Below are positions 1,738 through 23,904 of a stretch of 64,000 nt of DNA, piece by piece. The position numbers and the translations under genes were made by a program. The DNA comes from an uncultured Pseudomonadota bacterium (GTDB taxonomy: Bacteria; Oederibacteriota; Muellerivitia; Muellerivitales; Muellerivitaceae): NCBI GenBank assembly GCA_963836235.1, contig CAWIIP010000004.1, forward strand, positions 199,281 through 263,280, read 5' to 3'. Each line of letters opens with the position of its first letter. The first letter of the stretch is position 1. Below the pieces are notes generated by a model. It was given only the letters and a program-made list of their open reading frames with translations. It was not told the origin of the DNA and did no database searches.

Positions 1738-2817
1738 ATGCGTAGCATCACTTTTTTCCAGGCTGGCAATGGGAATTTTTCGCTTGTCCAAGCTGATAAC
1801 ACAAACATTTTGATGGATATGAAAAGCACCGAAGATAAGACCTCTTGGGAAATTGTGAAACCGTTTTTAAAGAAAGATGGAAAAAAATACATTTTGGACG
1901 TTCTTTCCGTATCGCATGGGGACCAGGACCATTGTGGTGGCTATACAGAGTTTCAAAAGTTAATGGATGAAGGAAAACTAGTAATCGGTTCTATTTGGCA
2001 CCCCGACTATGACCGCACTGAAGTTTCTGAAGAAGAAGAATTGCCTGAGGATTATCTTATGCTCCATAAAGAAATACTTCGGCGTCAAAAAATCAAAAAT
2101 CCTCAATTTGGGGAAATCCAAATACCTTTAACAACATTAGATGACGAAAAATCAGCTTTTAACGGTTTACAATTGCCCACTGATTTAAAACTGAAGGTTT
2201 TAAATCCTCATCATAAAGACCAAGGTGATACTGAGTGGGACGTAAATGATTCAAGTCTAGTAATAAAATTATCCATTTCCGGCTTAAGAGTTTTATTTAC
2301 TGGGGATTCGAGTTCGGAAGTTTGGCAAACAAGAATTATTCCTCTGACATTAAAGAAAAACGATAAATCAGATTGGGCAGAAGCTCAAATTTTAGTTGCA
2401 TCACATCATGGTTCTGCTACTTTTTTTGGCGTCGATAGAGAAACTGTTCTTAATGCCAAACCAACTCCTGAAAATTACAAGGCACTAGATTATATTAAAC
2501 CTGAATTTTTGGTTCTTTCTGCATCGACAAAATTTCCGACGAGTGGGGATGAATCTGGAGATCTACCCCCTCACTATGCGGCTTGGAAGTGGTATCACAA
2601 ATGGTTTAGAGAAAATAAGAATGTTAAGGAAAGCGATAACCATCCCGATTTGTTCAAATATACGGCTAATGGGCACGTTCGTTTGCAATTGGGCGACGAT
2701 AAAGAATGGAGATTTAAAGAAAATTGGACGCCTGATGATGATCCTGATAAAGGTAGCGATGTCCATTTTACAAATAAAGGCGGGGGAACTAAGCGCCAAG
2801 AATCAGGGTATGCGTGA
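1738..2817 (+). CDS. metallo-beta-lactamase-fold protein (ComEC/Rec2-type MBL, putative nuclease/hydrolase)
   Basis: HxHxDH-like motif SHGDQDHCGG and downstream ASHHGS motif typical of ComEC-like MBL domains. No signal peptide. C-terminus ...KRQESGYA. TGA stop 8 nt before the next ATG. Confidence 0.6.
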   Translation: MRSITFFQAGNGNFSLVQADNTNILMDMKSTEDKTSWEIVKPFLKKDGKKYILDVLSVSHGDQDHCGGYTEFQKLMDEGKLVIGSIWHPDYDRTEVSEEEELPEDYLMLHKEILRRQKIKNPQFGEIQIPLTTLDDEKSAFNGLQLPTDLKLKVLNPHHKDQGDTEWDVNDSSLVIKLSISGLRVLFTGDSSSEVWQTRIIPLTLKKNDKSDWAEAQILVASHHGSATFFGVDRETVLNAKPTPENYKALDYIKPEFLVLSASTKFPTSGDESGDLPPHYAAWKWYHKWFRENKNVKESDNHPDLFKYTANGHVRLQLGDDKEWRFKENWTPDDDPDKGSDVHFTNKGGGTKRQESGYA

Positions 2818-2825
2818 ATTGAATA

Positions 2826-4634
2826 ATGACTTCTTTCCCTCCCGGCCTTTCAGAGGCAATTCAAAAAGGTTTATTAAAAGCTGCTTCAACACAATGTTGT
2901 GAATTTATTTCTGAAATTCGGCCTTCGACTAATGAGGGCTATTTTGAAATAGAAGCCATAATTGGTCCTGCGGATGTACCTCTAGGTTCTAGCCCACCAA
3001 AATATAAGGTCCGTTTTTTAATACCAAAATCCTTCCCATATGACGTAATAGAGACCGTTCCCTTAGACCCAGCGTTAAAGTGGAACCAGCACCAATTTGC
3101 TGATGGAGATTATTCAAGGGCGAATATTATTTGTCCCCCGTCATTAAATAATATACCTGCTGAAGCATTATTCTTCCCTTATATCGAACATGCCTATAGA
3201 TGGATTACTGATTGTTTATCGGGGACGCTCATAAAACCATTGGAAGATTATGAATTTCCGCATTTGGGGGAGGAGCCTAGAGGCAACTTCAATTTTTATA
3301 TTGATATAGACAATTTTCCCCATTCATGGATTTCAAAAAATAAATTTGGTATGGCCTGGACCACTGAAATAAACGGAAGTAAATCAGGAAAGCTTTATCG
3401 TGTAAGGGAACTTGAGGCAATAAACCCGCTTGAAGGCCCCAAAAACATAGAATCCAGCATACGAGACAATTGTTTTGTTAACGGGGAAACAAAGGGTTGG
3501 ATTCCATGGATTTTCGGTGGCAATCCAGTCTTTAAAGTTCCACATCAACGTTTTCAAAAGCTTTCGGAATTTAGCTTAGAGTTTAGAGATGAATTTTTAA
3601 ATGCTTGTAAAAATGTAATGGAAAAACAGTTTACTTTGCCGTATTTACTTTTAGCGTTTGAGATCCCACTTAAATGGTCGGGTACACCAAACAGAATATA
3701 TTGGACTGCAATGAGTTTGAAGAAATTTAATGGTTCTTCATTTAAGTGTCCTCCGGGTTTTCGTCCGAAGACCTCTGATTTCAAAACGTGGCCTAATGTT
3801 ACTCAATTTTTTAGAGAAAACAATCCATTGTTACTAAACCATTGCGAAGATATTTCTCCTAACACAATGACATTGAGGAGCGGAGAAGAAAACGTGGATA
3901 TGAAGTCGAAAAAAATTGTTATTGTGGGTGTTGGTTCGCTTGGTTCAATGTTAACAAAATCGATCTCGAAATTAAGCCCGGCTAAAATCAAATTGATTGA
4001 CAGTGGAAGGATTGAACCGGGTAATTTAATTCGGCACGAGGCATTAACTTCTCAAGTCGAGGAATTTAAAGCTGATGCAATGAGAATGTTAATAAAACCA
4101 ATGTTTAAATCCTCTGAGGTGGTTTCCCTCGCGATTGATATTGTTTCTGGTTTGCCAAAATTTATTGAAGCTATTGCTGATACTGACTTAATACTTGATT
4201 GTACTGGAGACGCTGGTTCAAATTATATGTTGCTAAGTAATTCAAAATTTTTGACTCACAAAGTAGCAATCGCATTTATTAAACCCGGACCTGCTTTTGG
4301 GGTTTTAATTTTGAAAAACCCCGGCCTTAATATTTCTCCCCGCGCCTGTATTGATAAACTTAAAGAAGGAATTCCGGCAGATGTTTGGGAAAGATATAAC
4401 AGTTCAGATTCTACGGAAAGCCAAGAAGTAAGAACTGCACCTGGTTGCTATTCAACTACCTTTTCCGCCCCTTATTATAGAATTAGATTGTTGGCCGATA
4501 TGTTTCTTGCATCTATTCTTGGATGGTTGAATGGGGGAGCTTCCTCTAGTTTTATTTTATTGTTTGACCAAGTTGTTTCCGAAAGTGGATTAGGCGTAGA
4601 TATTAAACGCTATGAAGTAAAAATTAATGATTGA
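2826..4634 (+). CDS. E2-like/E1-like fusion protein (Cap2-like ubiquitin-transferase-like enzyme)
   Basis: N-terminal UBC-like core (KYKVRFLIPKSFPYD ... HQFADGDYSRANIICPPSL, candidate catalytic Cys). C-terminal ThiF/MoeB-type Rossmann domain (KIVIVGVGSLGS) with a downstream Cys (PGCYSTT). 8-nt overlap with the next gene. Confidence 0.6.
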   Translation: MTSFPPGLSEAIQKGLLKAASTQCCEFISEIRPSTNEGYFEIEAIIGPADVPLGSSPPKYKVRFLIPKSFPYDVIETVPLDPALKWNQHQFADGDYSRANIICPPSLNNIPAEALFFPYIEHAYRWITDCLSGTLIKPLEDYEFPHLGEEPRGNFNFYIDIDNFPHSWISKNKFGMAWTTEINGSKSGKLYRVRELEAINPLEGPKNIESSIRDNCFVNGETKGWIPWIFGGNPVFKVPHQRFQKLSEFSLEFRDEFLNACKNVMEKQFTLPYLLLAFEIPLKWSGTPNRIYWTAMSLKKFNGSSFKCPPGFRPKTSDFKTWPNVTQFFRENNPLLLNHCEDISPNTMTLRSGEENVDMKSKKIVIVGVGSLGSMLTKSISKLSPAKIKLIDSGRIEPGNLIRHEALTSQVEEFKADAMRMLIKPMFKSSEVVSLAIDIVSGLPKFIEAIADTDLILDCTGDAGSNYMLLSNSKFLTHKVAIAFIKPGPAFGVLILKNPGLNISPRACIDKLKEGIPADVWERYNSSDSTESQEVRTAPGCYSTTFSAPYYRIRLLADMFLASILGWLNGGASSSFILLFDQVVSESGLGVDIKRYEVKIND

Positions 4635-5223
4635 AAAACCAAGTAGCAATTACAGTTTTAATTTTAAAACAGGCAGTCTCGAAGTGCATTTATCAAATTC
4701 TTTAATAGGTCAGCTAAGTCGTTTATCGAAATCCGCTTTGCCTAATGAAACTGGCGGAACTCTTCTGGGCTATTACAATGATTCAATGAAGATTGCAAAT
4801 ATTACTGAAATTTTGAAATCTGCCGGAAAACCCAAATCAACTCCAACTTCTTTTATTAGGCCAAGTGATACCAAGGAAACTGAGTCAAATAGAAGAATTT
4901 TGGCTTCACGTGGGCGTCTTTTTTATTTAGGCGAATGGCATTCACATCCAAAAGGGCCACCTTATCCAAGCCCTAATGATTTAATGTCTTGCTTTGAATT
5001 AGTTAAATATTCCAGAGTCCCGACCGAAACACCAATAATGCTTATAATTGGAAATGATCTGTCTGCTAATGTAAACAATATGGCTTGCTGTCTATTGGTG
5101 GCGAAAAAAGGCGCATGCGAAATTCAAAGAGCAGAAAGAATAAACGAACCGATACCACTTAAGAACCAAAGAAAACTTCGATTATTTACCAACGTAAAAC
5201 TGCGAAAAAAATTGCATCTTTAA
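4627..5223 (+). CDS. JAB/MPN+ (JAMM) metalloisopeptidase, Cap3-like
   Basis: JAMM motif GEWHSHPKGPPYPSPNDL (E..HxH..S..D). ATG overlaps the upstream stop (ATGATTGA). Confidence 0.7.
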   Translation: MIEKPSSNYSFNFKTGSLEVHLSNSLIGQLSRLSKSALPNETGGTLLGYYNDSMKIANITEILKSAGKPKSTPTSFIRPSDTKETESNRRILASRGRLFYLGEWHSHPKGPPYPSPNDLMSCFELVKYSRVPTETPIMLIIGNDLSANVNNMACCLLVAKKGACEIQRAERINEPIPLKNQRKLRLFTNVKLRKKLHL

Positions 5224-5268: not shown

Positions 5269-5958
5269 ATGTGCGTTTGTTACCAGCTAAACCTTCCCAT
5301 TAAAAACATCGCAAAGGCCTTCAAGGCAAAACCGCCCAAAGTGACCTGGAATCCCTTGGACAAAATCCGGCCTTCCAACCTGGTTCCCGTGGTTATGGTT
5401 AATCCTCCAACAGGGGAGAGGGTTATTAAGCTAATGACGTGGGGAATGCCTTTTTACGATTTTCAAAAAAAGAAATTGGTTAAGCACCACCTCTTTAACG
5501 CTAGGTCCGAAACCATCACCGAAAAGAAAACCTTCAAAAGCCACTTCCAAAAGGACCGTATCTTGGTTCCGGTTTTTCCCGCCTTTGTTGAATGGCAGGA
5601 CACCGGAGAAAAGCGAAAGAAGCCTTATGTGATTGGCCTAAAATCGAATGAGCCCTTTGCTTTTGCGGGTATATGGGGGAAATGGAACATGACCATCGAG
5701 GACGACGAAACCATCGAAAAGAAGTTGAAGGCAAATCCCAAGTATGTCCCGAAAAAAGAGGAAATCGAGTATTACTCAGTTATCACGACAACCCCAAACG
5801 AAGTAGTGGCTCCTATTCACAACCGTATGCCTTGCATTCTGGACTCCCGGAACTACGATGCTTGGTTGGACCCCAAAATTGACCCGGAGATACTCAGACC
5901 CCTTTTGAAGCCCTTCCCAGCCGAGAAGATGCAAGCTAAACCAACGGGGAAAACCTAA
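5269..5958 (+). CDS. SOS-response-associated peptidase (SRAP/YedK/HMCES family) abasic-site processing protein
   Basis: Cys at position 2. Motifs HHLFNARSETI, ILVPVFPAFVEW, FAFAGIWGKW and HNRMPCIL match the SRAP family core. Confidence 0.75.
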   Translation: MCVCYQLNLPIKNIAKAFKAKPPKVTWNPLDKIRPSNLVPVVMVNPPTGERVIKLMTWGMPFYDFQKKKLVKHHLFNARSETITEKKTFKSHFQKDRILVPVFPAFVEWQDTGEKRKKPYVIGLKSNEPFAFAGIWGKWNMTIEDDETIEKKLKANPKYVPKKEEIEYYSVITTTPNEVVAPIHNRMPCILDSRNYDAWLDPKIDPEILRPLLKPFPAEKMQAKPTGKT

Positions 5959-5995
5959 AAAAAGAATATTCGATTTATAGAGAAAGCTTTATTTT

Positions 5996-6304
5996 ATGAA
6001 GAAAAAAAGTTCCTCCCAAAAAGATCTATTCAATCAAGAACCAGAAAATCCCGATATGGTTCGTTTTATTAAACGAGATCGTAAATGGTCCCGTGAAATT
6101 CGTGAGTTGATTGCCACCACATCTTGTCCTCATTGTGGTTCTCGAAAAATCACTTACTTTGAATGGGGCCAAGGCGGTTTTGGACCAGAACACGATAAGC
6201 TGGTAGCGGAAGACCTTCTCATCCAGAGGGGTTGCATCATGCAGAAGGATGAACCGGAATTTACCTGCCGCGATTGCAAAAAGAATTTCTCTAAAAATCC
6301 TTGA
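5996..6304 (+). CDS. zinc-ribbon protein, hypothetical
   Basis: Two CxxC pairs (CPHCG ... CRDCK). 102 aa. Confidence 0.35.
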   Translation: MKKKSSSQKDLFNQEPENPDMVRFIKRDRKWSREIRELIATTSCPHCGSRKITYFEWGQGGFGPEHDKLVAEDLLIQRGCIMQKDEPEFTCRDCKKNFSKNP

Positions 6305-6313
6305 AGTAGGCGT

Positions 6314-7018
6314 TTGAATATGAAAATGAAATTTGCTCTCGTAAATGAAGAACGATTGGAGCCCCAGCCGGGCCTCAAAGGTAAGTGTTTCCTTTGTGAA
6401 AAACCCGTAGTTGCGAAGTGCGGAAAGATTAGGATTCCGCATTGGGCTCACCTTGGAAAGCTCGAATGTGACCCCTGGTGGAAGAACAAAACTGATTGGC
6501 ATATTGATTGGCAAAATAAATTTCCTAAGTCTTGGCAGGAATTTGTTCACCAAGCCACAAACGGTGAAAAACACTTTGCTGATGTAAAAACAGACCAAGG
6601 TTGGGTTCTTGAATTCCAACATTCCTTCATCAAACCGGACGAAAGAAATTCACGAAATAACTTTTACCCAAAAATAGTTTGGGTTGTAAACGGAATGAGG
6701 CGGAAGAATGACCTAAAGAAATTTTTTGAAGTTGTAAAAAATAATGGTAAACAACTCAACCCAAAGGCACCAATATTGAAGTTAATGGGTTACTGGGATG
6801 AGTCTGCTCTTCTTCGTGACTGGGCGGATAGTCCTGTGCCAGTATTCTTTGATTTCGGAGGAACTTCAGACCTTTGTTATTTACTTCCCAAGAGTGCCGA
6901 TGGATTTCCTGATGTTGTATGGTTCCCACGAACGTACTTCCTTGAACTATTTCTGAATGGGGCACAGAAAGTCAAAGATATGAACTTTTGGTTTTCGGAT
7001 TTTATATCGGGCAATTAG
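6314..7018 (+). CDS. CoiA-like competence/nuclease family protein
   Basis: N-terminal Cys pairs plus HWAH. Core EKHFADVKTDQGWVLEFQHSFI resembles the CoiA family. Confidence 0.5.
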   Translation: MNMKMKFALVNEERLEPQPGLKGKCFLCEKPVVAKCGKIRIPHWAHLGKLECDPWWKNKTDWHIDWQNKFPKSWQEFVHQATNGEKHFADVKTDQGWVLEFQHSFIKPDERNSRNNFYPKIVWVVNGMRRKNDLKKFFEVVKNNGKQLNPKAPILKLMGYWDESALLRDWADSPVPVFFDFGGTSDLCYLLPKSADGFPDVVWFPRTYFLELFLNGAQKVKDMNFWFSDFISGN

Positions 7019-7471
7019 GCAAAACCGCAGCCCCAAACACCAAGCCAACCTCCTCCTCAAGTACAAATTGATCCCAACAGCCTTCAAGCTTACGTTCAAC
7101 GTAAAATAGCCAGGGAGAATTGATTTCGGAGACGATTTTAAGGGGCTTAACGCGAAAATATGCTGACCGCAGCGACAGTCTGGGTAGGTAAGTATCCCTT
7201 GGCTAAGGACGAGGAACAGTACAAAGACCAATCAGCAGAGTTAGTATTTATTACTGGTCGCAGTGTATGGCCGTACCGAATCAGTGAAGTGGTAGAAGCT
7301 TTTTGGGATCAAACTTATGAAGGAGCTGTTAGCACCATCCCTGTTCCACTGATAGTTTGAAGCTGTTTCTGCACTTCGAAGCCCGAAATTGTAAGCAATA
7401 AACCCCGAACGATGGCTCTGGTGAGATAATAGAGTGCTTTTATACTAGGGAGATATATTCGGCGGTAAGTC

Positions 7472-8947
7472 TTGAAAATCCTCATCGACACCAACATCGT
7501 TATTCCTCTTGAACCGGCATCCACAGGCGACTTAGAGCCGGGTACCATCCTTGCCGCTGAATTTCATCGTTTGGCCGCCAAAGCGGGTCACCAGCTATTC
7601 ATCCATCCCTTAATCCGACTGGATATTGATCGTGACCGCGATAGTGCTCGGGCTGACCTGCGTCGACAGTTAATTGGGAAATATAGCCAGTTAAATAACC
7701 CCCCAACCATTATTCAAAGACCGATTCCGCCATTAGAGGCACCTGCCCAAGATAGTAATGATTGGGTTGATGTAAACCTATTGGTGGCATTGGACTCTAA
7801 TGCCGTGGATATATTGGTGACCGATGATGAAGATATCCATCGGAAGGCCTTGAAGGTTGGTTTGCAATCCAAGGTTGCGCGACTGCCAGATATGGTGGCG
7901 TCGCTAAAAGACCTGTTTGATAAGGTTCATGAGCCGCCACCGGCAGTTGACTTCACTGAAGCTTATACTTTGAACGAGAGCGACCCGATATTTAATAGCG
8001 TGAGAGAGAGCTATGGAGCTGAGTTTGATCCTTGGTTACAGAAATGCAAGGCCCAACATCGGCACTGTTTTGTCATTCAGGATAAGTCGGCGGGAAAGTA
8101 TGTCGGTGTGGCTATTCTGAATAGAGAAGATGGCGCTTATGGTCTTGTGGGGAAGACCTTAAAACTCTGTACTTTTAAAATAGCGGACGAATATGGTGGG
8201 TACCGATACGGGGAATTGTTGTTGAAAGCTGTTTTTGATTATGCGGTAAACAACCAATACGATGGCGTATTTGTAACGGCTTATCCTGACAAAGATCGTT
8301 TGATTCGAACGTTTCAAGATTTTGGGTTTCAAATTGTTGAGCAAGGTGCCCAAGTGGTTCTTGTGAAGCGATTCACTTATACACGGGCTGAATACGATTT
8401 GGTTGAACCGCTAGTTTTCCATACTCTTTATGGGCCGATGGCGACTAAATTTGAGGGAAACAACACTCACATTGTCCCAATTCAGCCGGAATTTCATAAG
8501 CTCTTGTTCCCGGAATATGAACCACAACCCGAACTGTTCCCAGGCCAGCATCCCTGTGGGAACAGTATCAAGAAGGCTTACCTGTGTCATTCGGCTACCC
8601 GTCAATTAAAACCAGGGGATAATCTTTTGTTCTATCGGTCCGAGGATGATAAAGCGATAACAGCGGTGGGAATCGTTGAGGAGTTCATTGTTTCTTCTTC
8701 TGCGGATGAGATTGCCCAATATGTAAGCACAAGAACGGTCTATTCTTATGATGACATTAAAGCTATGTGCGAAACGGAAACATTGGCGATTAAATTCCGA
8801 CTTGTTAAAATCGTTAAGCCGGTTATCCCGCTTAAGGACTTAAAGAAAAATAAGGTGGTAAAAGAACATCCGCAGGCTATTCACAAGATTAAAACAGGGA
8901 GTGCTGAATGGGTAAGAGAAGCGACGAGCCTTCAACCGAAGTATTGA
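7472..8947 (+). CDS. PIN-like / GNAT acetyltransferase / ASCH (PUA-like) three-domain protein
   Basis: TTG start. N-terminus ILIDTNIVI with acidic residues (DWVDV, LVTDDEDI) reads as PIN-like. Middle GNAT-like (GVAILNREDG ... YGGYRYGELLLKAV ... FQDFGFQ). C-terminus PUA/ASCH-like (KPGDNLLFYRS ... AITAVGIVEE). Confidence 0.5.
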   Translation: MKILIDTNIVIPLEPASTGDLEPGTILAAEFHRLAAKAGHQLFIHPLIRLDIDRDRDSARADLRRQLIGKYSQLNNPPTIIQRPIPPLEAPAQDSNDWVDVNLLVALDSNAVDILVTDDEDIHRKALKVGLQSKVARLPDMVASLKDLFDKVHEPPPAVDFTEAYTLNESDPIFNSVRESYGAEFDPWLQKCKAQHRHCFVIQDKSAGKYVGVAILNREDGAYGLVGKTLKLCTFKIADEYGGYRYGELLLKAVFDYAVNNQYDGVFVTAYPDKDRLIRTFQDFGFQIVEQGAQVVLVKRFTYTRAEYDLVEPLVFHTLYGPMATKFEGNNTHIVPIQPEFHKLLFPEYEPQPELFPGQHPCGNSIKKAYLCHSATRQLKPGDNLLFYRSEDDKAITAVGIVEEFIVSSSADEIAQYVSTRTVYSYDDIKAMCETETLAIKFRLVKIVKPVIPLKDLKKNKVVKEHPQAIHKIKTGSAEWVREATSLQPKY

Positions 8948-9411
8948 TTTCGATTTACCAGAAATATGCGGAAGCCATATTGAAAGGTGAGAAAATCATT
9001 GAATTTCGCAAAGCGCAATTCCCAAAAAACGTATCCCGTGTCTATCTATATTCCACGAGCCCCGTTCAAAAGGTCATCGGTCATTTTGATGTAAAAGACG
9101 TTCTTCGAGCTAGTCCTCGGAGTTTGTGGAACGAATACGGGAAACATGGCTCGATCGGTTATGCTGATTATGTTAATTACTATGGAGACGCGGAAGAGGC
9201 TTGTGGAATACTTGTTAAGAGTGTCGTTCGATATTTGCGACCGGTGGATTTAAAGGAAATTGATCCCTCAATGTCGGTACCACAAAGTTATCGTTACCTT
9301 ACTGAGGATCTTATTGAAAAGCTGGAAAGTAAATCTTTAAAAAATCGATCAAGCTATTTTTCACGAATAGTTTCCTCTGCATTTGGATTGGGAAAGATGT
9401 TTGCGAGGTAA
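8908..9411 (+). CDS. ASCH domain protein
   Basis: ISIYQKYAEAILKGEKIIEFRK ... RVYLYSTSPVQKVIGHFDVKDV is an ASCH-type beta-barrel signature. Overlaps the upstream gene end. An alternative TTG start at 8944 would give a 4-nt overlap. Confidence 0.55.
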   Translation: MGKRSDEPSTEVLISIYQKYAEAILKGEKIIEFRKAQFPKNVSRVYLYSTSPVQKVIGHFDVKDVLRASPRSLWNEYGKHGSIGYADYVNYYGDAEEACGILVKSVVRYLRPVDLKEIDPSMSVPQSYRYLTEDLIEKLESKSLKNRSSYFSRIVSSAFGLGKMFAR

Positions 9412-9673
9412 CTTGGTAAGATTTTATAGAACACCATTCCTTCTCCTATATTCGACATTGTGCGATCAAGCTTATAAGTGGGGCATTTCTACTTGGGCTA
9501 AGGTTATTTTTTAAGTGGCTTTTTCTAACTATTCTAGAATCTCTGATTTCATTGTTTTGGATGGGCCAGTTATTGAAAAAGTGATGCGATTATTGATTTA
9601 GCAAAAATGGCAAAGGGACAATAAACAAAAATCCAATCCAACAATTGAAGCTTTTTAAAAAGAAAGGAATTTC

Positions 9674-10519
9674 ATGGAAGCCAATGACGATATGTTTACA
9701 ACTATTCTTGGTTTAATTATTAGTCTGATAATTTCATGGAGCATTGGGCTTTTCCTTCCGATTCTGATTCGCTACGTTTTTTATAAACGGGCCCTTTCAA
9801 AAAAAGAGGCTGGTTGGTTTGCCTTTGCGAATTCTTTTTTAAATTTTATCCTCTCAGTGACAATGGCAATCGCATTCCCCGATTATTGGAAACTTTCCAA
9901 CGAAAAAAACTTGTTATTGCCTTACGTTATCTTATTTTTTGGTGCCCGGTGGGTAATGACCAGGCCAACAGCTCCCCCGAAAATTAAAAAGGCTGAAGAA
10001 AAAAAGGTGCCGGTGGAGCATTTAAGTTTGGGACGGAAGACTTTTCGATTTTTTTGGAAAACCGTTTTTTGTTTGGCTGGAACCTGGTTGGGGGTTCTAT
10101 GGATAATCACTATTTACGCGATGCTGAAGAAAGACATTGAAAACGAATTATTTACTTCCGGCTTTGTAATGTTTGTTTCCCGGTCTAGCTCCTTGGCGCT
10201 AATAACCTTTGAGTTGATAATCTCCCTCTATCTGTTTTCGTATATTATTCAAAAAACTCTGTTGGTGAAAATTATTAGATTTATTGAATGGATAATTTTT
10301 ATAATCTTTTTGATTATGGGAACGGTAGGGATTGCAAATTACTTATTTATGTTTTTGAAGGGGGAAGGGTTTTACCCGGGAACTATTATTTTCAATCTGT
10401 TTTTTGTTGGTATTTGTTTATTGGTTTTGTGGCATCTGTTTAAGATTCCGGCTTCGACGAGAATTTATCAAAATTTGAAAATTAGTTGGACCAACAATAA
10501 AGCTTTAAAAATGCCATGA
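9674..10519 (+). CDS. polytopic membrane protein, hypothetical
   Basis: 281 aa with at least 6 hydrophobic helices. No recognisable motif. Confidence 0.4.
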   Translation: MEANDDMFTTILGLIISLIISWSIGLFLPILIRYVFYKRALSKKEAGWFAFANSFLNFILSVTMAIAFPDYWKLSNEKNLLLPYVILFFGARWVMTRPTAPPKIKKAEEKKVPVEHLSLGRKTFRFFWKTVFCLAGTWLGVLWIITIYAMLKKDIENELFTSGFVMFVSRSSSLALITFELIISLYLFSYIIQKTLLVKIIRFIEWIIFIIFLIMGTVGIANYLFMFLKGEGFYPGTIIFNLFFVGICLLVLWHLFKIPASTRIYQNLKISWTNNKALKMP

Positions 10520-10871
10520 GATGGGAGAATTCATTTGTCAGAACTTAGAAGAACACATTTCATTTATAAAAAAGGCACCCTTGACGAACCCACCCCATCC
10601 GTATACTCTTAAATTAGTCATTAAGAGTTGGGCTGGCGCCCATACCAACCTGCCTACCCCGGCAAGGTGGTTCGCTTTCAAAAGCGGATGAGGCCCCCGA
10701 AGGGCAACTTTAGCGGGACTGCCAGCCTTCCTGAATTTTCAGGTGGGCTTTTTTATTGCCCGGAATTGGAGGAAATGCAAAACCAAAAAATTTTGTAAGG
10801 CTGGATTTAACCAACTTGTCCCGGCCAGGCTCCCGGAAAGGAACCAAAAGGGACTAAAAAGGAGATTTAAA

Positions 10872-12035
10872 ATGAGTAACACCATTCCGTTTGAGAATTT
10901 TGAGGATATCCACCAAGACATCCCGAGGCAATTTAGTTTTTTAAGGCAAAAACTCGTCACCCTCGCCTTCATCCCAAGGCGATTAGCAATTCCAGAACGA
11001 CCTGAACTAAACGATTTTCCACTCAACATCATCTTTTCCAACCGGGTTGATATCCCCAAGGGAGGGGACATCCGCCTAGCTCTTTATGAGCCGGATTTTT
11101 CGACCTTCGAGTCAAAAGAGGGCAAAAAGGAGTTGATCTACCGCAATACGCATGGCGGGGACAGCCAAGTAAAAGTTATCAAAGAAGCCAAGGGCTATTA
11201 CACGGGAGTCAGAACCATCAAAGGGGTGGATAAAAATTTCGTCAATGGGGAAACCTGGAAATTCTTTTTTCTCTATTTGAGTTTATACGGGATATTTGGG
11301 GATGAAGCTTATATCAACTTGCCCGCCTCGGTCATAACCGAAGCTTTCCCCCCGAAGGCGATTCCAGAAAAGGACAAGGAGATATTGACCGCTCCCGAAC
11401 CGATCAAACCATATCTGACGGTCGCCCAGAACAATGTCAATGCCGACAGCAAGGCGGTTGAAGAAATCCGTTTAAAAGCCAAAACAGAACCCGATAAATA
11501 TCTTTCCCAACTCGCTAAAAACCTGAGCGACCTCGGGCTCAGTTTAAGTGGAGCAGGCCAAAAGGATGACGCGGTTAAGGTCACCCGCGAAGCGCTTGAA
11601 ATCGCTCGTTCATTGAACGAAGGGGAAAACCAAGAAAACCCTATCTTGCTAGGCGTAATCCTCAACAACTTTGGCAATAGGCTTTACGAACAAGGAAAAA
11701 TACAAGAAGCCATCGAAACGGTCAATGAAGCCGAAGTCATTTTTCGCAAGTTGGCCAAAGATTACGGGGGAACTCCCAGGGGCGACCACGCCAGAAGCCT
11801 CATTGATAGTGCTCAATATTTAAGTAAATTGAATAAAAACGATGAAGCACTTAAGCTGGCCCAAGAAGCCGTTGAGCTAAGCCGAAAACTTGTAAACGAG
11901 AACGCTGTAAGGTACCGTTCGTTTCTTGCAAGGGGTTTATTCACTCTTTCAAATTCTTATAGAGGATTAGGACTTTTCGACGAATCATATAAGGCAGGGA
12001 AAGAGGCTGAAATGGTATCCGATGGGATGGTATAG
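10872..12035 (+). CDS. TPR-repeat protein, hypothetical
   Basis: ATG at 10872 has a GGAG RBS. The table ORF extends to 10743 with no RBS. C-terminal half carries TPR-like helical repeats (LGLSLSGAGQKDDAVKV ... ALKLAQEAVELSRKL). Confidence 0.45.
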   Translation: MSNTIPFENFEDIHQDIPRQFSFLRQKLVTLAFIPRRLAIPERPELNDFPLNIIFSNRVDIPKGGDIRLALYEPDFSTFESKEGKKELIYRNTHGGDSQVKVIKEAKGYYTGVRTIKGVDKNFVNGETWKFFFLYLSLYGIFGDEAYINLPASVITEAFPPKAIPEKDKEILTAPEPIKPYLTVAQNNVNADSKAVEEIRLKAKTEPDKYLSQLAKNLSDLGLSLSGAGQKDDAVKVTREALEIARSLNEGENQENPILLGVILNNFGNRLYEQGKIQEAIETVNEAEVIFRKLAKDYGGTPRGDHARSLIDSAQYLSKLNKNDEALKLAQEAVELSRKLVNENAVRYRSFLARGLFTLSNSYRGLGLFDESYKAGKEAEMVSDGMV

Positions 12036-12065
12036 AAATTCTTTAAGTTAAAAAGAGGTGGTCAA

Positions 12066-12536
12066 ATGCCAAAACAAATCCTCTATATCGACATGGACAA
12101 CGTTCTGGTCGATTTCAAATCAGGCATTAATCGCCTGACAAAGGCCGAGAGGAAGCTTTTCAAAGACCGTCTCGACGAGGTTCCCGGCATCTTCCACCGC
12201 ATGGAACCAATGAAGGACGCGGTCAAATCTTTTCAAACCCTTGCCAAACACTTCGACGTTTACATCCTCTCCACCGCACCTTGGGAGAACCACACCGCCT
12301 GGAGCGATAAGCTGCTTTGGGTCAAATTGCACTTGGGGGAAACCGCCTACAAGCGAGTGATTTTGACCCACCACAAAAACCTGAATATGGGGGATTATTT
12401 GATCGACGACCGCACCAAAAACGGCGTCGATAAATTCACTGGGGAACACATTCATTTTGGTAAGGGCGAATTCAAAACCTGGAAAGCTGTGGTAAAGCAC
12501 CTTTCTTCTAAAAAGACGTCGGTTTCCAAAAAATGA
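12066..12536 (+). CDS. 5'(3')-deoxyribonucleotidase-like HAD phosphatase (NT5C family)
   Basis: HAD motif I, IDMDNVLVDF, at the N-terminus. GDYLIDDR matches the NT5C-type fold. 156 aa. Confidence 0.55.
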   Translation: MPKQILYIDMDNVLVDFKSGINRLTKAERKLFKDRLDEVPGIFHRMEPMKDAVKSFQTLAKHFDVYILSTAPWENHTAWSDKLLWVKLHLGETAYKRVILTHHKNLNMGDYLIDDRTKNGVDKFTGEHIHFGKGEFKTWKAVVKHLSSKKTSVSKK

Positions 12537-14901: not shown

Positions 14902-15372
14902 ATGACCACCCATGCCCACTATGTCGGCTCCGTCGAAGAATACGAAAACCTCATCCTGACCCTCGTTCTGCCCCCGGTCCAGTGCGGGGCTCCCGGCCCA
15001 CCGGAGTCCTACAAGGAGAAGCGCATCCAATTAAGCGACTTGGTGGATCACCCCTACGCCTCTTACCTCTGGATTGCCTCCGGGGATTCCATGATCGGGG
15101 CTGGCATCCATTCGGGGGATTTCCTTTTGGTCGATAAGGCACTCATCCCCATCCCCAACGATATCGTCATCGCCGCCCTCAATGGGGAGGCAACCGTCAA
15201 GCGGCTCAGTATCCAGGACAAGAAAGTTCTCCTCATTCCCGAAAACCCGGAATTCAAACCCATCCCGATTGACCCCGAAGAAGGGGTCCATATGCTCGGT
15301 GTCATTACCTATACCATCCATCCCTTGAGAGGTTCCAATGGAGTACGTCGTCGCATTGGTCGATTGCAATAA
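14902..15372 (+). CDS. umuD: UmuD-like S24 peptidase (LexA-like autoprotease; translesion synthesis accessory)
   Basis: ASGDSMIGAGIHSGDFLLVDKAL and IVIAALNGEATVKRL carry the Ser/Lys dyad context. N-terminus PVQCGAPGPPESY resembles the UmuD cleavage region. GGAGG RBS. Confidence 0.7.
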   Translation: MTTHAHYVGSVEEYENLILTLVLPPVQCGAPGPPESYKEKRIQLSDLVDHPYASYLWIASGDSMIGAGIHSGDFLLVDKALIPIPNDIVIAALNGEATVKRLSIQDKKVLLIPENPEFKPIPIDPEEGVHMLGVITYTIHPLRGSNGVRRRIGRLQ

Positions 15373-16609
15373 TTTCTTTGTCTCCTGTGAGCGTGCCTTT
15401 AACCCCCGACTTTTCAAGAGGCCGGTCGTTGTGCTTTCCAACAACGACGGCCTGGTCATAGCCCGCTCAAACGAAGCTAAGGCCTTGGGTTTCAAGATGG
15501 GTGACGCTGTGTTCTTGAAACGGGATCTGATTAAAGAACACAACGTCATAGTCATGTCCTCGAACTACGCCCTGTATTTCGACATGCGCGACCGGGTGAG
15601 GGAAGTGTTTTCTCTCTTTACCCACAGGCTAGATAAATACTCCATCGATGAATGTTTCCTCGACCTGTCCGGCATGCCCCATGAGGAATTAGAGGGGTAT
15701 GGACGGCAGATCAAGGAGATGGTGGAAAGATGCACAGAGATACCGGTGTCGGTGGGTATCGCCGGAACCAAAAGTTTGGCAAAACTCGCAAACAAGATCG
15801 CCAAGAAATCCGATAAGGCGAAGGGAGTTGTGAACCTTTTTAAATCCCCTCACTTGGAAAGAGCCTTGGCCCAAACCGATGTGGGTGACCTATGGGGTGT
15901 GGGACCGGCTTACGAAAGGATGCTCAAAGAGAACGGCATTAACAACGCCCTGGAATTCAGGAACGCCCCGGAACATTGGGTGAGGGCCAGGATGACAGTC
16001 ATGGGGGCCAGGATTCAAACCGAACTGAAAGGGACCGAGTGCTTTCCCTTGGAACTGCTACCACCGCCCAAAAAGATGATTGGTACGGCCCAAGGTTTTG
16101 GAGCCCTTATCGAATCCCTGGAAGAAATGAGGGAGGCCGCGGCGACCAGGGCATCCGAGGAGGCGGTGAAGCTCAGGGTCGAGAAGCAATGCGTGAAGGA
16201 ACTGACCGTCTGGATTCAGACCAACACCTTCAGCCCTGAACCCCAATATGGGGAAGCCCGGACGGTGGTATTCCCGGTGGCCACCAACGACACCTCGACT
16301 CTGATCCGGTATGTGGTGGCCGTGGTGGAGGCCCTTTACAAGAGGGGCTACCGGTACAAGAGGATAGGATTGAACGCCGACAAGTTGGAACCGGAGGACG
16401 CCGTTCAACAACATTTGTTCCTCAGGCCTGAGGATGCCCGGAGGCCTGTCCTGATGAGGGTCATTGACCAATTGAATGAGGTCAAAGGGGCCGGCACGAT
16501 CAGAATGGCGGCGGTGGGGATTAACCAAAGGTGGCTGACCAAGTTCGAACACCAGTCACCGCACTACACGACAAGACTCAGGGACTTGCCCATCGCAAGA
16601 GTCTGTTGA
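15338..16609 (+). CDS. umuC: Y-family DNA polymerase V catalytic subunit UmuC
   Basis: N-terminus ALVDCNNFFVSCERAFNPRL...PVVVLSNNDGLVIARSNEAKALG is the UmuC/DinB-type signature. 423 aa. Confidence 0.85.
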   Translation: MEYVVALVDCNNFFVSCERAFNPRLFKRPVVVLSNNDGLVIARSNEAKALGFKMGDAVFLKRDLIKEHNVIVMSSNYALYFDMRDRVREVFSLFTHRLDKYSIDECFLDLSGMPHEELEGYGRQIKEMVERCTEIPVSVGIAGTKSLAKLANKIAKKSDKAKGVVNLFKSPHLERALAQTDVGDLWGVGPAYERMLKENGINNALEFRNAPEHWVRARMTVMGARIQTELKGTECFPLELLPPPKKMIGTAQGFGALIESLEEMREAAATRASEEAVKLRVEKQCVKELTVWIQTNTFSPEPQYGEARTVVFPVATNDTSTLIRYVVAVVEALYKRGYRYKRIGLNADKLEPEDAVQQHLFLRPEDARRPVLMRVIDQLNEVKGAGTIRMAAVGINQRWLTKFEHQSPHYTTRLRDLPIARVC

Positions 16610-18683: not shown

Positions 18684-19565
18684 ATGAAAAGAAATATCGC
18701 AGAGGAAATCACCAACCGGATTTTAGAGGACTTGGAAAAAGGCGTCACGCCTTGGGAGAAGCCCTGGAAGGCAGGGCGGGGGCTACCCCTGCCCCTCAAC
18801 GCCAGCACCGGGAAGCACTACCGGGGAATCAATGTCTTTGTCCTTTGGGATCAAGCCATAGCGAAGGGCTATTCCACCCCCTCTTGGGTGACTTTCAACC
18901 AAGCCAACGGACTTAAAGGCCACGTCAAGAAAGGCGAGAAGGGAACCGACGTTGTTTTTTACAAGCCGATTTCCAAAACCAAGAGCTTAAACCTTGAGGA
19001 CGAGGTTTTGGTGGACCAGCAGACCTTTTGGGTTCTTCGAACCTACACGGTTTTTAACCTGGACCAAGTGGACGGACTTGACCACCTAAAACTGAAACCC
19101 GAACCGATGGAACCCTTTGTGGCCATCGAGGAAGCGGACGGGCTTTTGATTGATTCGGGAGCCGAGATTATCCACGCCCCTATTGACCAAGCCTTCTATG
19201 ACCGCAAGAAGGATTTCATCACTCTTCCCTTGAGGGAGAGCTTCGTGAGCCGGGAGAGTTTTTACGGGGTCGCCCTCCACGAGGTCACCCACTGGACCGG
19301 ACATTCGACACGGTTGAACCGGGAATTCGGGAAGCGGTACGGGGACCAAGCCTACGCCTTTGAGGAACTGGTGGCCGAAATGGGAGCGGCTTTCCTTTGC
19401 GCTACTTGCGGCATTCCTTACGCTACCCGGCATTCCAACTACATCGGGGACTGGATTCAGGTTTTGAAGGACCACAAGCGGGCCATCTTCACGGCGGCGG
19501 CCAAGGCCCAAGCCGCCATGGATTTTGTTTTGAAAAGAACGGGTGAGGAGGCGGCGGTGGCTTAA
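18684..19565 (+). CDS. ardC: ArdC-like antirestriction protein (N-terminal ssDNA-binding domain + zincin HExxH metalloprotease-like domain)
   Basis: ITNRILEDLEKGVTPWEKPW...YRGINVFVLW is an ArdC-N-like start. C-terminal HEVTHWTGH (HExxH). Typical plasmid/ICE gene. Confidence 0.75.
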   Translation: MKRNIAEEITNRILEDLEKGVTPWEKPWKAGRGLPLPLNASTGKHYRGINVFVLWDQAIAKGYSTPSWVTFNQANGLKGHVKKGEKGTDVVFYKPISKTKSLNLEDEVLVDQQTFWVLRTYTVFNLDQVDGLDHLKLKPEPMEPFVAIEEADGLLIDSGAEIIHAPIDQAFYDRKKDFITLPLRESFVSRESFYGVALHEVTHWTGHSTRLNREFGKRYGDQAYAFEELVAEMGAAFLCATCGIPYATRHSNYIGDWIQVLKDHKRAIFTAAAKAQAAMDFVLKRTGEEAAVA

Positions 19566-20528: not shown

Positions 20529-23156
20529 GTGCCTAAATATTTACGGCTCTACAACCAATTTGTTAATTTCGTAAAAATGGTGGAGAAAGAATTAACTACC
20601 GATTACGAACGTAAACTCATCAATCTAATTTTGGAGGATTTTGACGCGATAAAGGACAAGAAAGCCACCAAGGGTTTGCGGGGGAAACACCTTTACGAGT
20701 TGATTAAGAAAAAAGGAAAAAGTGTTTCGCCTACGATCACGGTTTCTTCGACTAACACTCAGTCAGGTGGGTTTTCTTTCGTCGGTCTTGATTCCATTGT
20801 GGTAGAACATTTTCGGGGGTTCTCCGAAAAAGAGACATTCAAATTCGACCGTCCATTCACGTTTGTCTTCGGCCCAAATGGAAGCGGTAAATCCAGCCTC
20901 TGTGAAGCGCTCGAATTCTCCATGCTTGGATACATCCAGGAAGCAATAGCCAAAGATATCGACGTCCAAGAGTACACGACCAACTGTTTCGATGAAAAGC
21001 AAAGTGATCCCGTCCTTAAGGCAAAGGATGCATCGGGGAATATCATCGACATTTCCCAGAACCAAGACTTGCAATTCTGTTTCATAGAAAAAAGCCGGAT
21101 CGAAAGCTTTGCAAGGATTTCAGCAAACACCCCGAAAAAGATGGAGGAGCAACTCGCAACATTGTTTGGCCTGGATGAGTTCAACGAATTTGTCGGAGAT
21201 TTTAACAAGAAGGTTGACGATTATTTTGAAATGGATTCTCTTAAGGCAAGGGAATATGAGGCCAAAAGCGCCGGGATGCCGGGCATTAGGGAGAACCTGG
21301 AAGGGGAAAAAAAGAAGAAGGGGGAAGCAGAAGCCAAGATTGCTGAAATTGTAAAAAACTCCGGGATTCCCTCGGTGGGGGATTTCGAATTTGCGTTTGT
21401 AAGCCCGAAAACAGGAACTAAGACCAAACTGGAAGAAATGAGCGAAAAACTTTCAGCGCCGACGTCCCAATCTCTCGTTTTTCCAACGGTTATCAAAATA
21501 GTGGAGGATATCAAGGCGGCGAAAACCGCTTTGGTTCCGCTAACCGCAATTCGGAGCCAGTTGACCTCCCGCAAAAAAGAATTCCAATTCCGCGATCTTT
21601 TCGAAGCTGCGTCCGTAGTTGAAACTTTATGGACAGAATCCTGTCCCCTGTGCGAAACGCCAATGGATGAAGTCCACAAACATCCATACGACAACGCCCG
21701 TGCCAAACTGAAGGAACTGGAGACACTTGCCGCTTTTGAAAATCAGGAAGAAAAAGATTATGAGATATTTTTGGAAAAGATAGACGCCATGGATAAATCC
21801 ACCGAATCTTTCAACGCTGTCCTGGTCTCCAATGGGAAAGATTCCTTTCAGTTCGACGCCATCCCTTGGCCCGGGAAGAACAGGGCGGACAGGGATCTTG
21901 CCATTGCACACCACGAAACGGTTGAAATATTTACAAACCAAAGAATGAAAGAATTGGTCGAGGCGGAGGCTTCATTAACAGCAATTAATTCCAAGATTCA
22001 AGACGAAATGAAAGCAAAAGCCGTTCTTCGGGCTGAATACGAACGGCTAAAAATTGAAAAAGACAGTTATATACAAGAAAAAGCTAATGTGAAAAATTGC
22101 GATGACCGAATCCAACAAGCGGAAAAAACGATTGCAACTTTTGAAGCCGAAACAGCCACTCTGAAAGCAGAGGTCCAGTCAGAAAAGGAACGTATTGACC
22201 AAAATAAACTATGGCTTTCGGCTTACGATAGCTTTAAGGAAAAGCTCGACGTCTATAAAGATCAACTACCCCTCAGGTACGTACAAAAACTCAGCGAGCT
22301 TACGTGTTCGATCTACAACCAATTAAATCAGCATGACCGGGAATATGAAAAGGCGTTATCAATTGATCTTCCTAAAACCACTGCCGATTCCATCAAGATA
22401 GAATTCGCCAAAAATCCCGGTTCTAAATTTGATGCCTTGCTTGTATTAAGCGAAGGGCATCTGCGGTGCTTAGGGCTCTCGATACTCATGGCGAAGAACA
22501 TTGATGACAATTGCCCGGTGATAATTTTTGACGATGTGGTTAATGCAATCGACGACGAACATAGGAGCGGAGTGGCCGACCTCCTCTTTGAATTTGATCG
22601 GTTGCGGGGTAAACAGATAATACTAACGACCCACGCTGAACATTTCATATCCGACCTTCAATTGAAAGTGCCGGCCCAGAACAAGAAGGATTTGATTCAT
22701 GTCTATAATTTTCAATCAGATGAAAAAAGGCGGAAAATAAATATTGATTCCAAATCCCGGAATCATCTTGAACGCGCCGATGAACATTATTCCGACGGAC
22801 GAATGGACGATACGCTTCATAGCTGTAGGTTGGCACTTGATAACATTGCCGAGGCTTTATGGAAAAGACTATGGAAAAAGGGTTATGCCGCAACAATTAG
22901 GGTTCCTCTAAGAGAACTCCATGCCAAGCCGGATACAAAAAATGCCATCGAAGCATTGAAATCCTTCATCAAGACTAAGAATGTTACTGAATTTATAGGG
23001 ACTGATGAGCATTTTGAGTATTTGTTACAGGAGGATGTCTGGAGCCAATTTAATATTGCTTCTCATGAAATGGGAGGTAAACCGACTTTCAACAACGCCA
23101 TCATTAAGGAAATTGTGGGTAGGTGTTATAAGATCGATGCGATTGTAAAAAGCTAA
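20529..23156 (+). CDS. SMC/Rad50/SbcC-like ABC ATPase with zinc-hook-like CPLC motif
   Basis: Walker A FGPNGSGKSS. Long coiled-coil with a central CPLC (Rad50-hook-like). Signature LSEGHLRCLGLSILMA. Walker B/D-loop IIFDDVVNAIDDEH. Extra C-terminal domain of about 170 aa. Confidence 0.65.
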   Translation: MPKYLRLYNQFVNFVKMVEKELTTDYERKLINLILEDFDAIKDKKATKGLRGKHLYELIKKKGKSVSPTITVSSTNTQSGGFSFVGLDSIVVEHFRGFSEKETFKFDRPFTFVFGPNGSGKSSLCEALEFSMLGYIQEAIAKDIDVQEYTTNCFDEKQSDPVLKAKDASGNIIDISQNQDLQFCFIEKSRIESFARISANTPKKMEEQLATLFGLDEFNEFVGDFNKKVDDYFEMDSLKAREYEAKSAGMPGIRENLEGEKKKKGEAEAKIAEIVKNSGIPSVGDFEFAFVSPKTGTKTKLEEMSEKLSAPTSQSLVFPTVIKIVEDIKAAKTALVPLTAIRSQLTSRKKEFQFRDLFEAASVVETLWTESCPLCETPMDEVHKHPYDNARAKLKELETLAAFENQEEKDYEIFLEKIDAMDKSTESFNAVLVSNGKDSFQFDAIPWPGKNRADRDLAIAHHETVEIFTNQRMKELVEAEASLTAINSKIQDEMKAKAVLRAEYERLKIEKDSYIQEKANVKNCDDRIQQAEKTIATFEAETATLKAEVQSEKERIDQNKLWLSAYDSFKEKLDVYKDQLPLRYVQKLSELTCSIYNQLNQHDREYEKALSIDLPKTTADSIKIEFAKNPGSKFDALLVLSEGHLRCLGLSILMAKNIDDNCPVIIFDDVVNAIDDEHRSGVADLLFEFDRLRGKQIILTTHAEHFISDLQLKVPAQNKKDLIHVYNFQSDEKRRKINIDSKSRNHLERADEHYSDGRMDDTLHSCRLALDNIAEALWKRLWKKGYAATIRVPLRELHAKPDTKNAIEALKSFIKTKNVTEFIGTDEHFEYLLQEDVWSQFNIASHEMGGKPTFNNAIIKEIVGRCYKIDAIVKS

Positions 23157-23195
23157 TGACTTGACAACGTGTCGCTAGTAAACGACAATTGATTC

Positions 23196-23546
23196 ATGGA
23201 AGCTAGGCCCCGGACCGTTATCAACTACGCAAAACTCGACGGGGTCGAACCGGTCGATGTTTGGTTCCGTAACTTGAAAGACTTGGTAGGGAAGAAGGCT
23301 GTTTCGGACAGGATTCGAAGGGTCCGGCTGGGCACTTTGGGCCACGTTGATAATATCGGGCAAGGTGTTTGGGGGTTGAAGATTGACGTGGGGCCGGGTT
23401 ACAGGGTCTATTTCGGCCAGGACGGCCCTGTGTTAGTTATCCTTCTTTGTGGAGGGGAAAAGCACGGCCAGGACAAAGATGCGGCTACGGCCAGGGAACA
23501 TTGGGCAGATTATAAGAGTCGAAAGCAGAAGGAGCATGGAAAATGA
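23196..23546 (+). CDS. type II toxin (HigB/RelE-like, addiction-module killer protein family)
   Basis: VGQGVWGLKIDVGPGYRVYFGQDGPVLVILLCGGEKHGQDKD is the killer-protein family signature. 4-nt overlap with the next gene. Confidence 0.65.
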   Translation: MEARPRTVINYAKLDGVEPVDVWFRNLKDLVGKKAVSDRIRRVRLGTLGHVDNIGQGVWGLKIDVGPGYRVYFGQDGPVLVILLCGGEKHGQDKDAATAREHWADYKSRKQKEHGK

Positions 23547-23899: not shown

Positions 23900-23904
23900 C
23901 TTCA

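Follow-up and report, generated by a model that had tools for sequence, protein, structure and literature searches.

A PIN-GNAT-PUA protein gene and its overlapping ASCH partner gene: a copy of the candidate system PDC-M11 in an uncultured bacterium

Results

Two overlapping genes in the window

We describe a pair of overlapping genes, here called gene A and gene B, in a stretch of 64,000 nucleotides (nt) from an uncultured Pseudomonadota bacterium (assembly GCA_963836235.1, contig CAWIIP010000004.1, positions 199,281 to 263,280), referred to as the window. Gene A encodes a protein with an N-terminal PIN-like, a central GNAT-like and a C-terminal PUA-like domain, and gene B a stand-alone ASCH protein; the coordinates of both genes, of their features and of neighbouring genes are collected in Table 1. 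Both open reading frames, of 491 and 167 amino acids (aa), lie exactly where a first-pass annotation, made by a model from the letters alone, had placed them. Translation from the TTG of gene A gives the N-terminus M-KILIDTN, in register with those of its homologues, and because hundreds of full-length homologues exist, this reading frame did not arise by chance.

That annotation had also reported that the stop of gene A overlaps the start of gene B. An overlap is indeed present; it extends over 40 nt and is out of frame, and is not a 4-nt stop/start junction. The ATG of gene B is built from the final base of codon E479 of gene A and the TG of the following W480 codon (8909-8911), and a Shine-Dalgarno sequence precedes it inside the gene A coding sequence. 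By its layout, the overlap is one of translational coupling. A scan for promoters and terminators over positions 6900-9750 returned fewer sites than were found in shuffled controls.

The pair belongs to a catalogued candidate system

Profile searches against PADLOC match protein A to PDC-M11A (PDLC04421; E 2.9e-169, residues 1-483 on positions 1-482 of the 486-position model) and protein B to PDC-M11B (PDLC04425; E 1.1e-40, full length). As in PDC-M11, gene A is followed directly by gene B on one strand, and no structural difference from that system was found. These profile matches mark the pair as typical of the PADLOC candidate system PDC-M11, and the locus adds an unremarkable copy to a candidate that had already been catalogued. 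The suggestion of the first-pass annotation that such a fusion had not been described was thus mistaken, since PDC-M11 corresponds to an architecture described computationally in 2013, 2017 and 2020.

In their classification, Matelska 2017 (PMC5499597) assigned the PIN domains to families PIN_15 and PIN_17, gave the domain order as PIN-GNAT-PUA, noted that GNAT motif A is lost and found a second PUA-like gene "always" in the operon. Bell, Wolf & Koonin 2020 (PMC7641849) described "(PIN)-GNAT-EVE" operons, "almost all" of them with an ASCH gene, noted their proximity to defence genes, classed them as putative toxin-antitoxin systems and stated that none of the modules had been characterised by experiment. 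The first description and the idea of nucleic-acid acetylation are credited by both studies to Iyer et al. 2013. The window copy shares with these operons the N-terminal PIN domain, the central GNAT-like domain without motif A, the C-terminal PUA-like domain, the ASCH gene and the defence-related setting. It differs in having no AAA_17 ATPase, no helix-turn-helix (HTH)-ASCH fusion and no adjacent type I restriction-modification genes, all of which are frequent but optional companions. The toxin-antitoxin or sensor-effector reading proposed at first sight agrees with the prediction of Bell 2020 and with the labels of the phage proteins GevT and GevA in GenBank (see below); the part of it that drew on TacT/AtaT-type toxins gained no specific support.

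Protein A combines three conserved domains

The AlphaFold model of full-length protein A is confident, with a predicted local distance difference test (pLDDT) score of 86.3 and a predicted template modelling (pTM) score of 0.72. Residue conservation was counted over 73 orthologues, whose identity to the window protein ranges over 36-47%. For the N-terminal domain, a Pfam search of the window protein gave no direct PIN match, and a profile search of this domain against Protein Data Bank sequences found nothing, so that the PIN assignment is based on Pfam matches of homologues and on fold comparison. Among 23 homologous N-termini (39-85% identical), 14 matched PIN_3, with a best E of 6.2e-8. When a model of residues 1-158 (pLDDT 81.9) was compared with solved structures in Foldseek, PIN domains accounted for 21 of the 25 best matches. 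The scores were moderate (best E 2.7e-3, template modelling (TM) score ~0.5), and the PIN domains matched include SMG6, Nmd4, EST1A, Utp24, PAE2754, VapC4/11/15 and RNase P types. Residues D6, N8, H45 and T/S117 are present in all 73 orthologues and D100 and D119 in 72; the position D/E51 is acidic throughout, and E14 is also conserved.

The central domain was detected directly by Pfam (Acetyltransf_1, residues 183-286, E 2.8e-7). It matches Naa50 and PaiA at the profile level, and its Foldseek matches, many of them GNATs, include NatD, PaiA and GNAT toxins (E 1e-6 to 2e-5). Invariant in the 73 orthologues are Y181, F185, W188, R197, K231, K236, E248, L249, F284-G285-F286 and K299, with G247 kept in 71. 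Aligned to the RGIGIG of Naa50, the acetyl-CoA-binding motif A reads x-G243-x-R/K245-x-G247 in place of the canonical R/Q-x-x-G-x-G/A, with positions 1 and 4 changed. On this alignment motif A of protein A is non-canonical, in agreement with Matelska 2017. The tyrosine that serves as general acid in many GNATs (FY-x-x-GF position) is likewise unconserved in the family.

The C-terminal barrel carries a Pfam EVE match (residues 374-465, E 1.5e-6) and is structurally ASCH-like: the closest solved structure to this part of the full-length model in Foldseek is ZmASCH (TM ~0.8, E 8e-8). Residues N364, K368, Y370, T422, R443 and P467 occur in 73 of 73 orthologues, and the GxKxxExR motif of ASCH domains is absent. 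An hhalign comparison of the barrel with the B family gave E 7.8e-5 over 134 columns with a probability of 61%, which points to a distant relationship between the two. None of the three domains of protein A looks decayed, and all are under selection. The three folds that had been read from the letters of gene A, namely PIN-like, GNAT-like and PUA/ASCH-like, therefore all find support, the first in the homologue matches, the fold comparison and the conserved D6, D100 and D119, the second in Acetyltransf_1 and structural matches, and the third in EVE and the ZmASCH structure. The same is true of the proposed kinship between the stand-alone ASCH partner and the C-terminal domain of A, given the Pfam ASCH match of protein B together with the hhalign and structural relation.

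Protein B and its ASCH relatives

Pfam places an ASCH domain in residues 14-76 of protein B (E 1.3e-5). In an alignment of 43 partner proteins, the octapeptide G27-E-K29-I-I-E32-F-R34 retains K29, E32 and R34 in every member; Y48, P52, Y91, P125-Q126 and Y130 are invariant as well. Between the B family profile and the solved ZmASCH (5GUQ/5GUS) the match has an E of 4e-30, and ZmASCH in turn matches PDC-M11B with E 3e-29, which makes protein B a clear homologue of ZmASCH at the level of sequence profiles. Both have the same GKER-type octapeptide (G27, K29, E32 and R34 in B), and Y47 and S128 of ZmASCH have counterparts in Y48 and S127 of B. The two proteins differ at ZmASCH K53, which is Q54 in B with a lysine at B position 55, and in an extra, variable C-terminal tail of ~35 residues in B. 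Because the barrel of protein A is without the ASCH octapeptide, A gives the impression of a binding protein and B that of an enzyme.

Two studies bear on what such an enzyme might do. ZmASCH binds nucleic acids and is a weak, Mg-dependent nuclease specific for single-stranded RNA (ssRNA), with Y47, K53 and S128 involved; it cut ssRNA and not DNA (Kim et al. 2017, PMC5615036). In a 2026 preprint (bioRxiv 10.64898/2026.02.27.708502), each of the 19 ASCH proteins assayed, ZmASCH among them, freed bacterial tRNA of N4-acetylcytidine (ac4C) in vitro; in TthASCH, EOLA1 and TRIP4, Lys and Glu of the octapeptide were catalytic. The octapeptide of the ac4C deacetylases YqfB, TthASCH, EOLA1 and TRIP4-ASCH, with catalytic Lys and Glu/Thr (GxK[E/T]xR type), is present in protein B. 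Given the homology with ZmASCH, its ssRNA cleavage and the removal of ac4C from tRNA, we link protein B to RNA.

The genome of Zymomonas mobilis was inspected for a gene A homologue beside ZmASCH. A PDC-M11 operon is ruled out there, as the upstream neighbour, of 375 aa, has no similarity to protein A and no PADLOC match. This gene ends 48 nt 5' of ZmASCH (locus L083, 3825-5447) and also gave no Pfam match; ZmASCH may have a different, undescribed partner. As a separate observation, the ASCH domain of protein B matches the C-terminal half (183-310) of the NCBIfam model PRK12279, "50S ribosomal protein L22/unknown domain fusion protein", with E 2.4e-17, a sequence match hinting that this ASCH subtype can be ribosome-tethered.

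Pairing, coupling and mobility across the family

To place the window copy within its family, homologues of protein A were collected at E <= 1e-5, giving at least 1,679 homologous protein clusters, most of them of ~490 aa. A scan of GTDB species-representative genomes yielded 372 A-type loci in Desulfobacterota, Chloroflexota, Planctomycetota, Actinomycetota, Myxococcota, Cyanobacteria, Armatimonadota and other phyla. Pairing and neighbours were counted in the 80 best loci, 78 of which have sequence 3' of gene A. A B homologue follows immediately 3' on the same strand in 77 of these 78. At the exception, locus L030, a divergent ASCH reading frame with the motif SGSKIWELR overlaps the end of gene A, so that an ASCH partner is found in 78 of 78; the pairing of A with an ASCH gene is effectively obligatory, and the question of its conservation in other genomes, raised in the first-pass annotation, is answered in the affirmative. 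L030 (5183-7913) is also the sole related locus without a detectable B-family gene, and a DNA methyltransferase-like gene abuts the start of its gene A.

The coupling is as regular as the pairing. Among 65 loci with an assignable B start, 62 have a start codon that begins one base ahead of the conserved Trp codon of A. The commonest overlap is 28 nt, seen in 42 loci; it is 34 nt in 11 others and 31 nt in 5. Motifs resembling GGAGG recur 5' of the B start in most of these loci. The 40-nt overlap of the window copy is shared by its 80%-identical relative at locus L085.

Apart from gene B, no neighbour is conserved in the 80 loci; type I restriction-modification genes flank the pair in ~4 of them, and ~4 have a small P-loop protein nearby. 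L085 adjoins ruvC/ruvA and not the neighbours seen in the window. With no shared neighbour and a close relative in an unrelated setting, the pair behaves as an autonomous two-gene module. Homologues are carried by 29 plasmids, 10 of them conjugative, and the alpha-proteobacterial plasmid copies adjoin HTH proteins. A full-length A homologue also lies in an inserted fragment of the archaeal Methanothermobacter virus psiM100.

These neighbourhoods bear on an alternative in which the target is DNA. Here the barrel of A and protein B would read modified DNA bases, for example in hypermodified phage DNA, and either the PIN domain would nick or cleave the DNA or the GNAT-like domain would acetylate a DNA base in a restriction-like manner. 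According to Bell 2020 (PMC7641849) and Matelska 2017 (PMC5499597), this was the original idea of Iyer et al. 2013. It is consistent with the reading of 5-methylcytosine and 5-hydroxymethylcytosine in DNA by EVE domains, which are fused to nucleases in modification-dependent restriction enzymes, and with PIN-GNAT-EVE genes near type I restriction-modification and the ASCH-HsdS and HTH-ASCH fusions that Bell 2020 reports (PMC7641849). In our own sample, the type I restriction-modification genes flanking ~4 of 80 loci, the methyltransferase gene directly 5' of A in L030 and the HTH proteins beside the alpha-proteobacterial plasmid copies fit it as well. Against it, this linkage to restriction-modification is rare in the sampled loci and absent beside the pair in the window, and the pair itself has no PD-(D/E)xK or HNH nuclease. 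Furthermore, the top structural matches of the PIN model (SMG6, Nmd4, Utp24, VapC and RNase P types) act on RNA, and the only characterised homologue of B cut ssRNA, not DNA, and deacetylated tRNA. We therefore regard DNA sensing as unlikely.

PIN-less relatives in lambdoid phages

In lambdoid Escherichia coli phages, PhiR47_2 (PV340567.1) among them, the place directly after cI is taken by a gene for a PIN-less GNAT-EVE protein and one for an ASCH protein (locus L082, 2198-4384), and the GenBank record labels these products "GevT toxin" and "GevA antitoxin". This is the slot in which lambda carries the exclusion genes rexA/rexB. GevT and GevA match the PDC-M11 models with E 2e-133 and 7e-52, respectively. 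Protein B shares 41% identity with GevA (E 3e-28), and residues 167-432 of protein A share 28% with GevT (E 4e-23). The phage genes stand in the same order and likewise overlap out of frame, by 23 nt. GevT differs from A in having no PIN domain, Gly for C233 and Gln for E248, and the phage pair occupies a prophage immunity region, whereas genes A and B lie in a chromosomal island.

The PIN-less proteins also help to weigh a second alternative, according to which the PIN domain would be the sole active toxin, the GNAT-like domain a degenerate, non-catalytic scaffold, as in the view of Matelska 2017, and B a protein-binding antitoxin, the whole forming an expanded VapBC-like system. The replacement of motif A (R/Q-x-x-G-x-G/A) by x-G-x-R/K-x-G and the unconserved Tyr at the FY-x-x-GF position fit such a scaffold, and the invariance of four acidic PIN residues fits an active nuclease; the distant kinship of B with the C-terminal domain of A could favour neutralisation by mimicry or by heterodimer formation. 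On the other side, about 12 GNAT residues are invariant in the 73 orthologues, which come from many phyla, and this would be unexpected for a decayed domain. The catalytic ASCH Lys and Glu are also kept in B (43 of 43 partners). Finally, it is PIN-less GNAT-EVE proteins of the same PADLOC family that carry the toxin label, and as such proteins exist, PIN cannot be the sole effector in the PIN-less branch. We consider this alternative distinctly unlikely.

Genomic setting of the window

The window is a mosaic of GC (guanine plus cytosine) content, with 0.37-0.45 at 1-16 kb and 24-32 kb, ~0.53 at 16-20 kb and ~0.45-0.55 from 32 kb onwards; no tRNA genes were found in its 64,000 nt. The neighbours of the pair are listed in Table 1. 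Upstream, three co-directional genes form a 6A-MBL-like ubiquitin-like conjugation defence system (1738-5223), and because NF058523 matches the Cap2-like and Cap3-like genes separately, they are a split form of the fused protein. The zinc-ribbon and CoiA_N-like genes that follow also lie 5' of an identical A/B pair in metagenome contig L001. Downstream, the membrane protein gene next to the pair is not kept beside it in other genomes, and the NT5C-type gene possibly has a nucleotide-directed role in defence or counter-defence. The UmuDC-like and ArdC genes are hallmarks of an integrative or conjugative element. Further defence genes of this island, from the LmuB-like ATPase to the type IIG enzyme, lie at 20529-31308. 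Taken together, the pair looks to be sited in a mobile, low-GC, defence-island setting.

This setting also speaks to a third alternative, in which A and B would be a housekeeping pair that writes and erases an acetyl mark on tRNA or rRNA and so tunes translation, with no part in phage or plasmid conflict. The deacetylation of tRNA ac4C by ASCH proteins of all domains of life (10.64898/2026.02.27.708502) agrees with it, as does the match of the B-type ASCH to the C-terminal half of the NCBIfam L22 fusion model (E 2.4e-17). Hard to reconcile with it are the patchy distribution over phyla, the variable flanks without a conserved neighbour, the presence of the pair on plasmids and phages, the low-GC, defence-island-like surroundings in the window and the fused PIN nuclease, which would be unexpected in a housekeeping writer. 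A housekeeping role is, in our estimation, highly improbable.

Table 1 Genes A and B, their features and neighbouring genes in the window
Feature	Position	Strand	Description or basis
Gene A	7472..8947	+	491 aa; TTG start, TGA stop 8945-8947; PDC-M11A family member
PIN-like nuclease domain of A	7472..7921	+	residues ~1-150; homologue PIN_3 matches, Foldseek, conservation
GNAT-like domain of A	7949..8371	+	residues ~160-300; Pfam, profile, Foldseek, conservation
PUA-like beta-barrel of A	8459..8926	+	residues ~330-485; Pfam EVE, structurally ASCH-like
Ribosome-binding site of gene B	8896-8901	+	AGGGAG (Shine-Dalgarno), six bases 5' of ATG 8908-8910, inside the gene A coding sequence
Overlap of genes A and B	8908..8947	+	40 nt, out of frame; from reading-frame coordinates and sequence
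Gene B	8908..9411	+	167 aa; ATG start; stand-alone ASCH protein, PDC-M11B family member
MBL (metallo-beta-lactamase)-fold protein	1738-2817		6A-MBL-like system
E1-E2 Cap2-like protein	2826-4634		NCBIfam NF058523 "6A-MBL cap2_3" match
JAB Cap3-like protein	4627-5223		NCBIfam NF058523 match
SRAP (SOS-response associated peptidase) gene; 102-aa double zinc-ribbon protein; 234-aa protein with CoiA_N-like N-terminus	5269-7018		between the 6A-MBL-like system and the A/B pair
281-aa multi-pass membrane protein	9674-10519		directly 3' of the pair; no Pfam, NCBIfam or PADLOC match
TPR (tetratricopeptide)-repeat protein (430 aa), then NT5C-type 5'(3')-deoxyribonucleotidase (156 aa)	10743-12536		
UmuD-like S24 peptidase and UmuC-like Y-family polymerase	14902-16609		
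ArdC anti-restriction protein	18684-19565		
SMC/ABC-type ATPase, LmuB-like; nucleoside 2-deoxyribosyltransferase-like protein; 539-aa HNH protein; 1,073-aa type IIG restriction-modification enzyme	20529-31308		E 3.5e-26 (LmuB-like); weak match (deoxyribosyltransferase-like); E 5e-77 (type IIG)

Comparison with toxin-antitoxin and restriction systems

A TacT/AtaT-type toxin has only one domain, is ~160-180 aa long, contains a canonical acetyl-CoA motif and has a ribbon-helix-helix (RHH)/DUF1778 antitoxin encoded upstream of it. With the type II systems built on such toxins (TacAT, AtaRT, KacAT, ItaRT) our pair shares the GNAT fold and a two-gene toxin-antidote logic, and 7BYY and 7AK8 are among the structural matches of A. 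In contrast to these systems, A has its GNAT domain flanked by a PIN and a PUA domain, and its partner is an ASCH protein encoded downstream, for which Pfam and NCBIfam gave no RHH or DUF1778 match. The analogy to TacT/AtaT drawn in the initial annotation thus finds no specific support, and membership in this type was rejected, given the missing RHH antitoxin, the non-canonical motif A and matches to 7BYY and 7AK8 that are no better than those to ordinary GNATs.

Two further assignments were considered and set aside. VapBC systems pair a stand-alone PIN protein of ~130 aa with a DNA-binding antitoxin encoded upstream, whereas the PIN domain here is the first of three in a 491-aa protein, and no AbrB, RHH, Phd/YefM or HTH antitoxin lies nearby. 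Modification-dependent (type IV) restriction with a PUA-like reader was likewise dismissed; the nuclease fused in A is PIN-like, and the pair contains no HNH or PD-(D/E)xK domain.

Discussion

Starting from the identity of the pair, its obligatory pairing, its coupling and its conserved active-site residues, which we take as established, we infer the toxicity of A, its substrate, the trigger and the mode of neutralisation. We think it probable, if only just, that A and B form a mobile module of the toxin-antidote or abortive-infection type that acts on RNA. Protein A would be the effector, its PUA-like barrel selecting a nucleic-acid target, probably one with a modified base, to which the GNAT-like domain would transfer an acyl group and/or which the PIN domain would cleave. 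Protein B would be made by translational coupling from its start inside gene A, in fixed proportion to A, and would keep A harmless in uninfected cells. To this end the Lys/Glu pocket of its ASCH domain could hydrolyse the mark, or B could either compete with A for the RNA or bind to A. A role in conflict is suggested by the defence-gene neighbourhood, the plasmid and virus homologues and the lambdoid-phage copies after cI.

Several points weigh against this reading. Motif A of the GNAT-like domain is non-canonical, and Matelska 2017 (PMC5499597) holds that the domain is probably no acetyltransferase. EVE and ASCH domains read modified DNA too. The RNase activity of ZmASCH is weak and required a 100-fold enzyme excess (PMC5615036); ZmASCH had no activity on free ac4C, nor did it reduce ac4C levels in E. 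coli cells (10.64898/2026.02.27.708502). Because ZmASCH does not stand beside a PDC-M11A gene, its activities are transferred to B by homology alone. PADLOC PDC systems are candidates and not validated, and the toxin and antitoxin labels of GevT and GevA are GenBank annotation only. No experimental study of PDC-M11, PIN-GNAT-EVE or GevT/GevA was found in the literature, where results for the names GevT/GevA were swamped by the unrelated "Geva" and "GEVAT".

A more specific model, in which A and B would be an acetylation writer-reader-eraser system with toxin-antidote logic, seems to us rather unlikely as it stands. In such a system the GNAT-like domain of A would attach an N-acyl mark either to a base in RNA, such as N4 of cytidine in tRNA or rRNA, or to aminoacyl-tRNA, the barrel of A would read the target and the PIN domain would cut it, with the Lys29/Glu32 pocket of B continuously erasing the mark. 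The Lys/Glu dyad kept in B, the strong conservation of the GNAT-like domain despite its atypical motif and the obligatory pairing make this writer-eraser hypothesis concrete and testable. DarT ADP-ribosylates DNA, and its partner DarG is a macrodomain protein. The likeness to our pair is one of logic only: the toxin gene comes first and is followed by a partner from an enzyme family able to hydrolyse the mark that the toxin family could write. There is no homology between the systems, and for A and B the writer-eraser relation is hypothetical.

The family to which the window pair belongs is large, extending over many bacterial phyla, archaeal viruses, plasmids and E. coli prophages, and the biochemical question belongs to PDC-M11 as a family rather than to the window locus. 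Throughout it, the pairing with ASCH is hard-wired by the B start embedded at a conserved Trp codon of A. If the writer-reader-eraser model were true, the pair would be an RNA counterpart of DarT/DarG, and the widespread ASCH deacetylases would gain a natural antagonist writer.

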